A stretch of DNA of 64,000 bases, taken from the NCBI GenBank assembly GCA_951406725.2, contig OX597822.1, positions 13,888,001 to 13,952,000 on the forward strand, written 5' to 3'. Numbering within the stretch: the stretch's first letter is position 1; each line of letters begins with the position of its first letter. This DNA comes from Octopus vulgaris. Taxonomy: Eukaryota. The notes under the pieces were generated by a model. That model was not told the DNA's origin and ran no database searches. It saw only the letters and a program-made list of their open reading frames with translations. Shown one piece after another: positions 15,407 through 62,409 of the stretch. Both the position numbers and the translations under genes were made by a program.

Positions 15407-15684
15407 TAATCCAAACAAGAAAGCACAAAAAAACACAACAACGCGAGGACGTGGAACATAATATTAGGTTAATAAGAATTATAGAAATTACTATTACCAG
15501 TGGCCTAGCACAAAAAAAATTAGTCAATAGGCTATATATTATTCACATAAAATGTACACGATATATATGTATATATATAATAAAGGAATGCAAACAATGG
15601 GACAAGAACGCAAAACATCCAGACAGTTAGATGTTACAAAAAAGGGACAAGAAAAAACAGGGACGGGTCATTCGGAGTTTTCTT

Positions 15685-15757
15685 TCCTCAGTCGAGTTCC
15701 TGATTATCTTTGCAATTTCGGCTGGTTATACTCGAGATTGCTCCAAACTGACCAGCC
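15685..15757 (-). ncRNA. Putative non-circularly permuted hammerhead ribozyme (subfamily P2), intact core
   Basis: ggctggt..gcaa-TC-tcgagt-ata-accagcc-GAAA-ttgc..actcga-CTGAGGA; stems III and I fully complementary. Confidence 0.7.
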
Positions 15758-15896
15758 CCAAGGTAAAACTAAGCTAAGAGCACTAAATTCCTCGGAAAAA
15801 AAGCAGCGAATGTATACGAAAACAAGGATGGAAAAAATATACATGTATTTATATATATTATGTATCTATATGTATATATATATGAACATATATATG

Positions 15897-20771: not shown

Positions 20772-21087
20772 ATGCATATATGGGTACAGGATGTCACCAA
20801 CTGTGTAGACAAACGAGTTAAATACGTAAACAACGAGAGAGAAAAAATGGAAACCTGGATGAATAAACACAGAGAAACGACCCTTCACCAGTTGTCGGCT
20901 GTCTCTCTGCTCTTCATTTCGAGCATTCAACGACACCGCCTTCCTTCCTTTTCCGTCTCCCAAATCCACTCACAAGACATTGGTCGGCCCATGGCTATAG
21001 AAGACAATTGCCCGAGGCACCTCGCAGTGGGACTCTATTCTGAAACTCGTGATTGGGAAGCAAACTTCTTACCACACAGCCATGCCT
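20475..21087 (-). mobile_element. Diverged SINE A whose internal microsatellite carries a family P fragment (20771-20936)
   Basis: Tail 20475-20660, head 20945-21087, insert with catgcatatatgggtacagga motif. Confidence 0.7.
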
Positions 21088-28834: not shown

Positions 28835-29536
28835 TAATAATAATGTTATGTGTAACGTACGAACATCCTAAAAAATTCTAAATAGCACATATGAATATAA
28901 CGTACATAACTTGATATACACATTTCGGGGGAAAATACAATTTCGCTTTATTTCATAATTTTTTGCCATCTATATTGTATAACCATTGCCATCTAAATTG
29001 TAATTAATTTACAAAATTTCAGTTAACGGATAATACTAGAGTTCTCAGCCTTGCCTCTTTACATTTTACTGACGACTCCTCCGAAAGGAGAGGGGCTGCC
29101 ACGTCGAAAACGGGAGAGGGGCCAAAACTGGATGTGGTTCCTTCTGATGGTCATGCCTTTAGCTACTGGATCCTATAAAGGAGCTGTTGAGGTAGCGAAT
29201 CATGAAACGTGTTTGGAATTCCTTTGCCTTGCCTCTTTTCTTTTTACAGCTTTAATATCCCTACAAGACGCTTTTATCCATGATCCTGGATTGTCTCAAA
29301 TGGCCGATGTTTTCTTTACATCATCATTATCATCGTCATCAATACTGTAAGAAATTATTACTGTTGTTATGGCTATTGTTTAAGGTGAGCTGACAGAATC
29401 GTTCGCACACCGAACTAAACGGTTAAAGCCATATTGTCTATCTTTAGGTTTTAAGTGCAAAACCCGCGGGGTCGGTGTAATCGACTAGCTCCCTTCCCCC
29501 AAAATTTTCAAGGCCTTGTGCCTAGAGTATAAAATA

Positions 29537-29600
<64 letters not shown>
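28146..29600. repeat. Local tandem duplication of a composite block including a SINE B copy
   Basis: 28146-28289 repeats at 28972-29118; 28457-28790 repeats at 29257-29540. Confidence 0.85.
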
Positions 29601-29602
<2 letters not shown>

Positions 29603-29607
<5 letters not shown>

Positions 29608-31770
29608 CTGTCTCCCTACAATGTACAAAGCATTTACTGCAGTAATATCACAAAGATTAAACAAGCACCTGGACGAAAACAATTTGTTTCCAGAAGAGCA
29701 GAAAGGATGCCGCAAATGCTCATATGGCTGTAAAGATCAACTAATGATCAATAAAGCCATAACTGAAGACAGCCACAGAAAAAAGAAAGGCCTCAGTATG
29801 GCCTGGATTGACTACAGGAAGGCGTTTGATAGCATCCCCCACACATGGATCCTCGAAACACTAGCCATGAACAAAGTCGCACCAACAATTATAAAATACA
29901 TAGGACACTCTATGAATAAATGGCAAACAGTGCTACAGCTCCAAACAAAAGAGGGACTCGTGAAAACTAAAGCCATCCCCATTAGAAGAGGAATATTCCA
30001 GGGAGATACGCTCTCTCCACTCCTTTTCTGCTTGGCACTGTCACCTCTATCTGATATGCTAAATAGAACTGGATGCGGATATAAATGTTACGGCAAAACG
30101 ATCAGCCACCTTTTATATATGGATGGCCTAAAACTATACGCTACAAATGACAAACAGCTGGAAACACTACTAAACACAGTTCATGGATTTACCAAAGAAA
30201 TAGATATGAAATTTGGATTAGAAAAATGTGCCAAAGTAACCCTGAAAAGAGGAAAACTAGTTAAGAGTAGCAACATCACACTAGATAAAGCCAATGAAAT
30301 AAGAGAATTAGACCAAAGCCAAACTTACAAATACTTAGGAATCAATGAACTAGATAAGACACAACACACACAAATGAAAGAGAAAATTAAAAAAAAGAAT
30401 ATTATAGACGAGTTAGATCAATACTGAAAACAGAGCTCAATGCTAAAAACAAAATAATAGGTATTAACACTTTAGCCCTCCCAGTTATAAGTTACAGCTA
30501 CAATATCCTTAACTGGACACTAAATGAACTGACCAAAATAGATAGGAAAACAAGAAAAATAATGACAGGATCTAGGATGAATCACCCAAGATCTGACATA
30601 GAAAGACTATATATACAACGTATAGAAGGTGGTAGAGGCCTTATACAGCTGCAAAAAACTACTATAAAATAGCCACCATAGGACTGCAAAAATATCTACT
30701 TCAGAAGGAAGGAAAACTGATACAAATAGCGGCAAAACACGAGCAAAACAAAAAAAACTGTTCTCAGTATTTAAGAAAGCTGACAAATACAAACAAGAAA
30801 TCATACCACCTAACAAATATGAAGAAGAAGAAGATGAAGAAACAACAAAAGCTATAAAACAAATGAAATCCAAACTAAAACTAGAACAGCAACGAACCAT
30901 GATAAAACGATGGCAAGAAAAGCCCCTTCATGGCAAATACTGGACTACACTAAATGCAAAAGAAATAGACAAAGAAAAATCCCAGCAATGGTTGAGAAGC
31001 TCAGGACTCAAAGCAGAGACAGAAGGATTTTTAATTGCAGCACAAGACCAAAGCCTCTCCACCAGAAATTACCAAAAACATGGAAAAGAATCGTAACAAG
31101 TAACTGCAGAATATGTGGAGGTGGACAAGAAACAATAAATCATATTATCTCTGGCTGCCCAGTTCTGGCTAAGAAGGAATATATTCACAGACACGACAGA
31201 GTTGGGACCTACATACACTGGAAGCTATGCCAACATTATGGAATAACAACAGAAAAAAGATGGTATAGGCACACACCAGAAAAGGTCACAGAAAACGAGA
31301 AAGCAACCATACTCTGAGATATGCCAATTCACACAGATAGAGAAATTAAGGCCAACAGACCAGATATAGTTGTCAGAGATTATGAAGAAAAAACATGCTT
31401 TCTAATTGATGTATCAATACCAGCAGATGACAACGTGCCTCTAAAAGAAATTGAGCAACTTTCAAAATACAAAGACCTGGAAATAGAGGTAATCAGAATG
31501 TGGAATCTAAAAATAGAAACAATTCCTGTCATAGTAGGTGCATTAGGCATGATAAAAAATATTCAAACAAATGCATAACAAAACACCAGGACTTACAAAC
31601 ACATATAACATACAGAAAACTGCACTACTAGGCACTGCACACATCCTACGCAGAACACTTTCCATACAATAACCATCAGAGCATCACAACAAGTCACAGC
31701 ACAAACCCAAGGCACACAGAGCTGCACTCGGTAGTGAAGTGAAAGCACGCTATAAAAATAAAACTACTGG
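29603..31770 (+). mobile_element. R4/Dong-clade non-LTR retrotransposon, 5' truncated and frameshifted, copy 1
   Basis: ITCLPT, EQKG, WIDYRKAFDS, GIFQGDTLSPLLF, YMDG (YMDD mutated), CRIC..ETINHIISGC, RHD, RPDIV..IDVS, KY; stop at 31670-31672; (TAA)n on both sides. Confidence 0.93.
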
Positions 31771-32115: not shown

Positions 32116-34001
32116 TCGACACAAAAACTTATCAATAGCCTGGATAGACTATAAAAAGGCTTTTGATAGCCGATCACATAGCTGAATAAAGAAATGCCTG
32201 GAAATGTATAAAATAGCGCCTACTCTGCGAAACTTTTTGTCTGTAAGTATGAGATCATGGAGAACCAAACTAACTTTGAACAGTGACGATGAATCTCTAA
32301 ATGCTGGTGATGTAAACATTTCTTGTGGCATTTTCGAGGGCGACTCACTATCACCACTCCTTTTTTGTTTAGCCTTGATACCCCTCTCAAAATTGCTCAA
32401 TGACACACAGTACGGATATAAAATGTTGGATAAAAATATAAATCATCTCATTTACATGGATGATTTAAAGGTCTTTGCAAAAAAATGGCCAAAATCTCAA
32501 GGGCTTAAACAATTCAGCGATGACATGAGAATGCAATTTGGCCTCGAAAAATGTGCAAAAGCTACCTTTATCAAAAGAAAAATGACAGAAACATCTAACA
32601 TTAACCTTGACCAGCAGAATGTTATAAAAGAGTTAGACCCAGCAGAGAGCTACCTAGGGGTAATTGAAGGGGATGGAATAAGGCATTCAGTGATGAAGGA
32701 AAGGATCAGGAGAGAATGTTATCGCAGAGTAAGAGCAATACTCAAGACAGAGCTGAATGCGAGAAACAGGATCGAAGCGATCAATGCTTTAGCCACATCA
32801 GTCGTGACTTACAGTTTCAATATCGTTAACTGGTCAATAACTGAAATGTGTAATCTTGACAGAAAAATACGAAAACTGTTGACAATGCATTGAATGCACC
32901 ACCCTAAGGCAGATACAGAACGACTTTATCTGCCAAGAAAAGGAATATCTAAGTGAATTCCGAATACAACAAATTTCGGAATTAGACATACAAGAAACAA
33001 GCACAGAAAAAGCTAAGCGCATGAAAACCCGTGCTATAACTTCTGCCTTAGATATTCTGAATGACAAGAAAAACCTCTCAATGGCAAATACCAAAAGAGA
33101 GGGAATAATGCAGATGTTGACAAAGCCCTGACCCATCAATGGCTAATGGCCTCTGGCTTAAAATCTGAAACAAGGATTTATCATAGCAGCTCAAGATCAA
33201 TGCCTACCTACAAGAAATTACCAGGCCAACATATTAAAGAACGGCAGTAGCCCAACATGTCGTGTATGTCAACAACAAAATAAAACCATTGATCATGTTA
33301 TCTCCAAGTGCAGTCTTCTTGCACCTACAGAGTATCTCAACAGGCATGATAGAGCTACACAATATATTCACTGGGTAATTTGCAAAAGCCTGGACTTTGA
33401 TAAAAACTTGTGGGAACACAAACCACCTCCAGTGTTTGAAAATGACCACATTTCACTCCTATGGAACTTCACCATTCAAACAGACAGAAAGATAGACGCG
33501 AATAGGCCAGACATCATAGTAAAAGACTTTAGACAAAAAACATACCTCCTCATTGATATGACTGTCCCAATCGATATAAACGTATCTGTCAAGACCTACC
33601 AAAGACGGAGCAAATATAAAGATCTTGAAATAGAAATCAGCAAAATGTGGAACCCGAAGACAAAAACAGTACCTGTTTGTCATAGGTGCCCTGGGAATGA
33701 TAGCAAAAGGGGCTGATTGCTACCTAACTCAGATACCAGGAAACCCCAAAATGGCAGAAATTCAAAAGATAGTGCTCATGGGAAGTGCTCATATCCTACG
33801 CAAAATACTTTCTATGTGATCTCAAGTTTTAAAACAAACATAATTTTCGTATGGTTTTTTAGGCATACAACACTAAGTACAAAACCAAATATATGGCACC
33901 CTAGGCATAACACCAACATGAACTTCCAACTTGTTGTCTCTTGAGGTCTCTGGGTGAGACGTGGAGCCAGCTTGTGCAAATGTAAAGCATAGTCAAACAT
34001 A
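32116..34001 (+). mobile_element. R4/Dong-clade non-LTR retrotransposon, 5' truncated, different family, copy 2
   Basis: AWIDYKKAFDS, GIFEGDSLSPLLF, YMDD, CRVC..TIDHVISKC, RHD, RPDII..IDMT; ends in (TAA)n. Confidence 0.93.
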
Positions 34002-39719: not shown

Positions 39720-40440
39720 TATATGTTAATAAAATATATGCATATATATAAACATATATGTACGTACCTACCTCTACATGTACATATACACGCATATATG
39801 TGTACAGGACACCAAAAAGACGTCGAACACATAGAGAGACGAAAAACATAGACACAAACCAAGGAACAAGACAGGCAAAAAAAACGGAGATACAGGACAA
39901 TAAGCACAACGAAAAATCCCCTTCTTCAGTCGCTAAAGTTTCATCTACTAAACGTTTCGAAGGATAAAAGCGAGACGTATACTTCGAATGAAAAATTCCT
40001 TCCTGCGAAAAGCAAATCAATTAAAATTCTGAGATCTTTTCGCAGAGGGGTAAAAAAAGCAAGACGGTAACGACAGTACAAACATATAAACAGTAAAAAA
40101 TATATATATAAACAGTGGAAAAATAAATATATAACAGTGAGAGACAGGACAAGGAGAACAAGATAAGAAGGGCTGTTAACGCCAGACGAAAAAAGTATTG
40201 CAAACGCTGGATTATAGTGGACGACGAGAGAGGAAGATGTCGACCAGTGGCCTTAGAAGGCGGGCGAGAAAGGACGGGATAGCAGTTACGACGGAAGTAC
40301 GTCGCAGATGGACGACGGGAATGGGGGAGGAGGAGCAAGAGGAAGAGAGAGAAGAAGGGGAATGGTGCGAGGAGACCATGAAGAACAGTGAGGGGGAGAG
40401 AGAGAGGAAGAGACAAGTTAAGTGAGGGAAAAAAGACGAA
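39720..40440 (-). mobile_element. Family P non-coding repeat, long copy flanked by (TA)n
   Basis: gcatatatgtgtacagga motif, ribozyme block, hairpin 39998-40049, ggctgttaa..agacg block shared with 52445-52895. Confidence 0.7.
39918..39988 (-). ncRNA. Putative non-circularly permuted hammerhead ribozyme (subfamily P1), intact core
   Basis: gaag-tatacg-TC-tcgct-tttatccttc-GAAA-cgttta..agcga-CTGAAGA-agggg. Confidence 0.7.
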
Positions 40441-52444: not shown

Positions 52445-52895
52445 ACATACTTGGAAAAGGATGCGTGGCGTTCGTTCATATAATAATATAAATAATATAT
52501 ACATACATATATGTACATACCTGCATATATATGTATATATACATGCATATATGGGTACAGGACATAAAAAAAAAAAACCTTGAACACAATGAGAAACAAA
52601 AACATAGAAACGAACTTTTTTTCAAACAACGGAACAAACAGAGTACAAGACATACATCACAAGGAATATTCCCCTGCTTCAGTTGTCCCTGTTTCAACTA
52701 CTCCGCGTTACGAAGTTAAGGACAAGACGCGGCTTCGTTGAAACAATCCTTCCCGCAAAGCAAATTAAATAAAATTTGGGATTTTTTGCGGAGGGTAAAA
52801 ATGGTAACAAGAACAGGACAGTGAGAACAAAACAGTAAAAACAAACGGCGAAGGCTGTTAAGTCAAGACGATGGAGAAATTATTCTGAACGCTTA
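52445..52895 (-). mobile_element. Family P non-coding repeat with intact 3' end
   Basis: End acttggaaaaggatgcgtggcgttcg matches the reverse complement of 59570-59596; atgcatatatgggtacagga motif; ribozyme block. Confidence 0.75.
52671..52739 (-). ncRNA. Permuted hammerhead motif with two core substitutions
   Basis: gaag-ccgcg-TC-ttgtcc-ttaacttc-GTAA-cgcgg..ggacaa-CTGAAGC-agggg. Confidence 0.62.
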
Positions 52896-52934
52896 AGGAT
52901 ACTCGACTCTCTCGTCACTGACACGTGATCAGAG

Positions 52935-53218
52935 GGAAGCCATCTTTCCAACTGCTATTTTCACCAAGACCAGACCAGCTTATCCTGCCTCTTTCATAAG
53001 CTGTCTCGACCTGAAGAAAAGATCAGGCTACTCGACCTGAAGAAAATTCTGACTGGGCCCCACCTTGCAAGGTCATGCGCCGTTTATCTTGATATGAGAT
53101 CACCATGTTGCACACCTTGTGGTTGTGATGCACGTGCCTGGTGTACTCTTAGACGAGTAGTCATTATGGGTATACTGGGCTTCATATATTTTACTCCAGT
53201 TGCTCTCTTACTCAATAA
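52935..53218 (+). mobile_element. Retroposon 3' end terminating in (TAA)n
   Basis: tgggcttcRtatattttacYccagt...ctctYactcaataat also present at 28393-28457. Confidence 0.55.
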
Positions 53219-60432: not shown

Positions 60433-60637
60433 CAAAAGGGTAATAATATAGATTACTACCAGTGGCCCAGCACAAAAGACGAATTAGTCATTAGACAAAA
60501 TATTATTCATATAGAAAAATATTATTCACGTAGAAATATAATTAAGGGCTCCTAAATAAGGATGCCAAGTGCTAGGGACACAAAAAAGGGATAAATTTAT
60601 CGAGAGGGAAAATCAAAAACATTTACCAATAACGATA

Positions 60638-62183: not shown

Positions 62184-62311
62184 TAATCAGCCGAAATTGT
62201 GAAGATGATCCGGTTCTTGACTGAAGATTGGAGGCTTCGAATGTCCCGTCCGTGTTTTTTGTATCGTCTTCTAAATGTTTCACGTTCTTGTCCCAGTTTG
62301 TATTTTTTCAC

Positions 62312-62316
<5 letters not shown>
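62184..62316 (+). mobile_element. 5'-truncated subfamily P2 copy with GAAA and CUGAAGA segments
   Basis: cagcc-GAAA-ttgt..tcttga-CTGAAGA..cgaatg.cccgtcc..cgttcttgtccca, homologous to the reverse complement of 15598-15728. Confidence 0.7.

Positions 62317-62409
<93 letters not shown>

Follow-up and report, generated by a model that had tools for sequence, protein, structure and literature searches.

The locus near 15.7 kb of the window (the whole 64,000-nucleotide stretch of Octopus vulgaris DNA that was analysed) raises the question whether a hammerhead motif with its conserved blocks in the order cleavage site, GAAA, CUGANGA (S-G-C), and with one strand of stem II taken from upstream, can work as a ribozyme, and whether it would do so alone or as a dimer. 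The permuted layout had been proposed in a first-pass annotation, and all the words reported there were recovered at their minus-strand positions, with core words and stems in S-G-C order. The parts of the motif are the following.

15561..15837, minus strand: 5'-truncated P2 copy, 94.6% to the family majority over 278 nt
15796..15812, minus strand: 5' strand of helix IV (15802-15796) and of its extension (15812-15807)
15758..15795, minus strand: hairpin V (15795-15790 pairs with 15763-15758), leading straight into G10.1
15757-15751, minus strand: stem II 5' strand, GGCUGGU, with G10.1 as its first base
15745..15751, minus strand: 5' strand of helix b, the stem I/II interaction helix
15730..15741, minus strand: block S, with the stem III 3' strand (GCAA, 15741-15738), U16.1-C17 (UC, 15737-15736), the predicted cut and the stem I 3' strand (UCGAGU, 15735-15730)
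15712..15726, minus strand: block G, with the stem II 3' strand ending in C11.1 (ACCAGCC, 15726-15720), GAAA (15719-15716) and the stem III 5' strand (UUGC, 15715-15712)
15699..15705, minus strand: helix b 3' strand
15685..15697, minus strand: block C, with the stem I 5' strand (ACUCGA, 15697-15692) and CUGAGGA (15691-15685)
15669..15684, minus strand: helix IV 3' strand (15684-15678, directly after A9) and that of the extension (15674-15669)

All letters of the hammerhead core (CUGANGA, GAAA and UH) are present. Stem II is formed by 7 bp between GGCUGGU and ACCAGCC, its first strand coming from upstream as had been suggested, and the proposed cut between 15736 and 15735 on the minus strand is the position that the sequence supports. 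Helix IV begins at the base after A9, and its partner strand continues directly into hairpin V and then into G10.1, giving the full 5' to 3' order IV, hairpin V, II, b, III-UH-I, II'-GAAA-III', b', I'-CUGANGA, IV'. A dimer partner had been considered as the source of stem II, but all strands lie within one 145-nt stretch and helices IV and V bridge A9 and G10.1 in cis, so that a dimer is not needed. The stretch is best explained as a decayed S-G-C hammerhead-type motif, the core of which is predicted to be opened between A9 and G10.1 by two helices, and which in our model is likely to cleave itself within a single molecule at 15736/15735. Helices IV, V and b, the published precedent for the block order and the link to Naiad elements discussed below were missed in the earlier reading.

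Every helix forms in the 15.7 kb copy except b, which by eye has two mismatches and 5 of 7 pairs, whereas the P2 family has 8 bp here. A stem I/II interaction helix is needed for cleavage by SGC-3 according to the accessible text of Eckert 2023 (PMC10085705), and since helix b is damaged this particular copy may be slow, impaired or dead.

The evidence for the fold comes mainly from comparison between repeat families. Majorities were built from 30 copies each (for P62, 12 of the 30 were full-length), and in all of them the common order is II, b, III-UH-I, II'-GAAA-III', b', I'-CUGANGA. Watson-Crick pairs with own and with swapped partners were counted by script from the core anchors for six family majorities of three lineages, because a structure-blind alignment put the rows out of register. 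Own partners paired at 30/30 positions in stem I (66/150 when swapped), 18/18 in stem III (24/90), 30/30 in stem II with the upstream strand (68/150) and 34/36 in helix V (70/180). The contrast is less clear for helix IV, the weakest helix, with 21/24 against 73/120. This bears out the earlier claim of compensatory stems. Stems I and III were required by the search descriptor and the anchors of stem II and helix V were picked as best partners, and as the families are related the pair counts are not independent events. Helices II, IV, V and b lay outside the descriptor and turned out to be in register when they were located later. G10.1-C11.1 closes stem II in all six families. Between P2 and its sister family P62, stem I carries two double compensations while the core is the same except for N7, and helix b spans 5-8 bp in the family majorities. 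An analogous stem II pair had been noticed in P1 as gaag/cttc; the pair exists, but is longer, a 6-bp GAAGGA/UCCUUC. The distance from GAAA to CUGANGA was given correctly as 24 nt at 15.7 kb, 25 at 39.9 kb and 24 at 62.2 kb, and a count by eye on the decayed cores at 52.7 and 20.9 kb also gives 25.

Helices IV and V were assessed by shuffles of the 80 nt that precede stem II, with the remainder kept fixed. The in-register IV+V score was reached in 0/2000 shuffles for each of P2, P1 and P21, in 20/2000 for P52 and in 18/2000 for the 15.7 kb copy itself; for the Naiad family PN it was reached in 270/2000 and is not significant. The P2 hairpin V has 8 Watson-Crick pairs in the family majority. 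P62 has two unpaired U-U at the junction followed by 14 bp (0/400 shuffles). Helices IV and V were unclear or only loose in the rarer family P94 at locus L227 and at loci L186 and L211 (not significant for P94 and L186), and the layout of P94 at L218 did not parse. Nested folding of four real copies recovers helices IV and V in three, and also predicts competing hairpins. Taken as layout and helices, the fold is supported well enough to leave little doubt. In P62 and in the Naiads Bfor and Movir-2, the helix IV pairs nearest the junction repeatedly show U-U mismatches, which may mark a tolerated or tuned position. Splicing was also considered as a way to join A9 to G10.1 and was rejected: an AG precedes G10.1 only in P1, within hairpin V, and no GU follows the core.

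The descriptor holds the core words, a stem I of at least 4 bp and a stem III of at least 3 bp only. Its two S-G-C matches in the window are those at 15.7 and 39.9 kb, against none in each of 40 chunk-wise dinucleotide shuffles. In 60 arbitrary 10-kb stretches of the genome it gave three S-G-C matches against a mean of 0.25 in 20 shuffles, two being family copies and one low-complexity. This excess is not specific to S-G-C: the GCS, CGS and SCG orders also exceeded the shuffles in the same 600 kb (5, 9 and 4 against 0.45, 0.35 and 0.7), so that the descriptor count alone does not single out the S-G-C order. None of the six Rfam matches over 15600-15840 at E<=10 was to a hammerhead family, and no Rfam hammerhead family was among the matches listed for the window (150 of 427).

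The motif is carried by several repeat families, of which the window holds four more copies.

39790..40230, minus strand: P1 copy of a young family, 99.8% to the majority, full layout with other stem letters
52574..52845, minus strand: P52 copy with a decayed core (GUAA, CUGAAGC)
20772..20935, minus strand: P21 copy, old, with a decayed core
62184..62318, plus strand: P62 copy starting 7 nt 3' of the predicted cut, its 5' end missing and without the cleavage-site block

By blastn the window families fall into two lineages, P2/P62 and P1/P52/P21, and the Naiad family PN forms a third. P2 had been described as a divergent subfamily; as it has no blastn similarity to P1, the two are separate families. 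P2 is non-coding (coding capacity was judged by eye) and Penelope-like, with TA-rich flanks, and gave 43 matches among the 40 that were scored of 1795 candidates in the genome. Its copies are single, in partial tandem or in inverted pairs, end in (TA)n and have a tandem period of 715 nt, as measured on one pair (locus L322). Copies of P1 are 99% identical and form tandem units of 834-843 nt. The motif always lies near the 3' end of the repeat; in four families 78-135 nt separate it from the TA tract. P2 and P1 form non-coding tandem units each with one ribozyme motif, as do the non-LTR retrozymes, but the motif is in S-G-C order and is not the type I hammerhead of that group. Cores of the families were matched at 10 distinct loci in the 600-kb genome sample, which by extrapolation means tens of thousands of copies.

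Some further repeats were seen around these families. A different repeat at 15442-15586 directly adjoins the P2 copy on its 3' side and is seen again at 60442-60547 (74% over 112 nt). Beside the P52 copy lies a short duplicated stretch with CUGAAGA words (52933-53060, plus strand), common to some P52 loci, in which no hammerhead stems were found. Elsewhere in the genome, P94 (L094, L218, L227) and a further rarer family in L211 have S-G-C cores with upstream stem II partners, and other repeats (L190, L257, L274, L262) carry type I hammerhead-like motifs.

Cleavage at the predicted bond would leave a 3' product from which no copy could reach beyond the cut on the 5' side, and the 5' ends of genomic copies may keep a trace of this. 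With queries placed 26-35 nt 3' of the predicted cut, 18 of the 30 P62 copies begin 0-12 nt 3' of it. The P62 ends include two exactly at the cut, none at +1 to +5, two at +6/+7 and nine further up. In P2, 4/30 copies begin in the same window, where 0.7 would be expected under a uniform null (p about 0.005), and P1 shows no pile-up (1/30). The 13-nt window was set after the data had been seen and the P62 loci overlap the 600-kb sample that prompted the idea; with this post hoc window and an AT-rich stretch, microhomology to (TA)n or polymerase stalling may contribute to the P62 pile-up. Incidental copies, at 4-14 per family, were too few for this test. The ends hint at cutting in vivo, most strongly in P62 and weakly in P2. 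Contigs from 4 of 22 sequencing runs share, in the P1 stretch, a break 8 nt before the predicted cut, which fits a sequence-variant branch and so tells nothing about RNA ends, strand or circles.

The most serious alternative, though still an improbable one, is that the fold is genuinely derived from a hammerhead but has no cutting activity, or needs a protein for it, and serves as an RNA signal bound by a Penelope-like reverse transcriptase. A binding signal would suit a motif that is always close to the 3' end, and the core is opened at a place for which we found no tested precedent. It would also fit with the missing 5'-end pile-up in P1 and with the behaviour of related RNAs, as Penelope min-HHRs are poor cleavers in vitro (Cervera 2014, PMC4209133) and 8/9 retrozyme dimers stayed uncleaved (Li 2026, 10.64898/2026.07.22.740005), according to the accessible parts of both papers. 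On the other hand, the catalytic letters and the UH site are all kept while the stems turn over fully, and the predicted cut forms a sharp limit for the P62 5' ends. Self-cleavage at the predicted bond is regarded as probable.

Formation of a dimer between tandem units, in the style of the Penelope minimal hammerheads, is very unlikely. Tandem units do exist and short palindromes lie beside GAAA in P2, P1 and P52, but P21 and the Naiad family lack such a palindrome, every helix closes in cis, and a strand-swapped dimer would still take stem II from the upstream strand. Slightly less credible again is an ordinary type-SGC ribozyme, in which stem II would lie downstream of CUGANGA after a one-base insertion and the upstream helices would represent an off state. 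P1, P52 and P21 can form 4 bp in this way, two of them G-U, whereas at the same register P2 forms 0-1 bp and the Naiad family 2 bp. Over the families the canonical downstream stem II reaches 6/30 Watson-Crick pairs with no insertion and 10/30 with a 1-nt insertion, against 30/30 with the upstream strand. Chance complementarity in AT-rich repeats with purine/pyrimidine bias can almost be dismissed, because order, register and spacing are kept with different letters in three lineages and, by eye, in Naiads of five phyla, even though the folding z-scores are modest (-1.59 for the 15.7 kb copy, and -1.41, -2.52 and +1.06), the pairing of helix IV comes partly from composition and loose descriptors exceed shuffles for several block orders.

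Naiads have been reported to be without a canonical hammerhead, some of them keeping the core words, and the accessible part of Craig 2021 (PMC8557442) labels core words in their 3' UTR as 'HHR_core' and 'HHR_half_core' with no structure given. When the consensi available from that study were inspected by eye, S-G-C motifs with an upstream stem II strand were seen in 11 of 54: Bfor, one Clytia, three Acropora, Movir-2, Plae, Dst-4, Obim, Ovul and Esco. Helices IV and V are in register in most of the 11, and the layout recurs with different letters in Naiads of five phyla. Weak points in these consensi are a stem I of 2 bp in Bfor, a stem II mismatch in one Acropora and a weak stem II in Esco. 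Records were named by the header that follows them and by their order in the table, and words split by line ends would be missed by this count. In the nematode Naiads of the same material the motifs are of type I, with a long stem II. Also by eye, a spider Naiad in the accessible supplement of Craig 2021, and perhaps some ostracod Naiads, seem to have S-G-C motifs with other wiring, where stem II is a hairpin of its own and the strand after A9 pairs locally.

In the octopus, family PN represents the 3' terminus of a Penelope-like element of the Naiad group, its likeness to the published consensus (as far as accessible) being judged by eye. A Naiad would also have an N-terminal GIY-YIG endonuclease; the PN copies that were looked at are truncated. 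The PN motif end lies downstream of a reverse transcriptase (RT) piece on the same strand at 12/30 Naiad RT loci, a count that takes in the query locus and partial matches; the RT piece itself matches RVT_1 at E 2e-4, below the cut-off. Since all 57 Naiad RT matches in the genome are broken (longest frame 292 aa) and P2 gave no blastn match to the PN Naiad end, we can only infer an origin of P2 from Naiads and the mover of the young families; the P2-Naiad link rests on the common layout and the insertion habit. A young Penelope-like family at L261-L266 (e.g. L261:1745-4087, plus strand) has an intact 781-aa RT with a C-terminal GIY-YIG and an upstream frame. At the loci examined it had no hammerhead by descriptor and no similarity to the repeat units, and it is a candidate mover of P1 and P62.

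A functional model can be outlined from these observations. Helices IV and V would stack and clamp A9 beside G10.1, replacing the covalent link of other hammerheads, and helix b would dock stems I and II. Unit-length RNAs would be released when tandem or read-through transcripts are cut, and a Penelope-like reverse transcriptase/endonuclease may copy them into (TA)n tracts, with P2 and its kin as non-autonomous, retrozyme-like passengers. We lean towards such a role of the motif in transposition. With similarly guarded preference, we regard the layout as an ancient, non-circularly permuted hammerhead architecture, a five-helix junction opened at A9/G10.1 that is active as a monomer and widespread in animal Naiads and their passengers, where the cut would set the 5' end of the RNA to be reverse-transcribed.

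The S-G-C block order itself is already published; what differs from Eckert 2023, in its accessible text, is the opening of the core by helices IV and V. The type-SGC RNAs described there (HRIMA-1 and variants) cleave in vitro and come from metatranscriptomes, not from genomes of known organisms. They share with the present motif the block order, the full core and a helix that links stems I and II at their far sides, and the strand linking stem I to stem II measures about 3 nt in type-SGC and 1-5 nt here. In type-SGC, however, CUGANGA leads straight into stem II and the C block was assumed to be uninterruptible, with no more than 1-2 inserted bases from A9 to G10.1. Here block C is interrupted by helices IV and V, the chain ends lie in helix IV, and the layout occurs in genomic retroelements of animals. 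The plus-strand hammerhead of CChMVd with its extra A10 (PMC3705267, accessible part) tolerates one base at A9/G10.1, as compared with two helices in the octopus motif. In the literature searched, no tested precedent was found for so large a break.

Of the known mobile elements, Naiads resemble the P2 family in their bias towards insertion into (TA)n, in having partial copies both in tandem and inverted, and in their 3' UTR core words, as far as the accessible part of Craig 2021 describes them, but P2 is non-coding and does not match the Naiad end in sequence. Tandem non-coding units, each with a single hammerhead, also occur in non-LTR retrozymes and Penelope min-HHRs, and Penelope-like elements are believed to move them (PMC4209133; 10.64898/2026.07.22.740005, accessible parts), whereas their hammerheads are of type I with a weak stem III and act as dimers, unlike the pseudoknotted monomeric layout predicted here. 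Neither this layout nor SGC motifs in animals were found in the literature covered, which was mostly papers available without subscription and, for Eckert 2023, passages of the main text. The accessible parts of Perreault 2011 and Forgia 2023 do not describe the layout, nor does that of Lopez-Galiano 2026, where variants with additional helices are mentioned without detail.

If the proposed architecture is correct, the working rule by which CUGANGA and stem II cannot be separated would fall, and a seventh natural wiring would join the six-permutation scheme. Non-circular permutations, so far seen in anonymous metatranscriptome RNAs, would then also have a place in animal genomes. The architecture would further explain why Naiads seemed to be hammerhead-less. 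The layout offers an exact and cheap test, with one transcript and one predicted bond, as well as a descriptor for the re-screening of genomes, and the truncation pattern is a handle on what Penelope hammerheads do. Apart from the families described, the window contains two broken remnants of non-LTR retrotransposons with RVT_1 matches, at 29489-31317 and 32186-33716, both on the plus strand.
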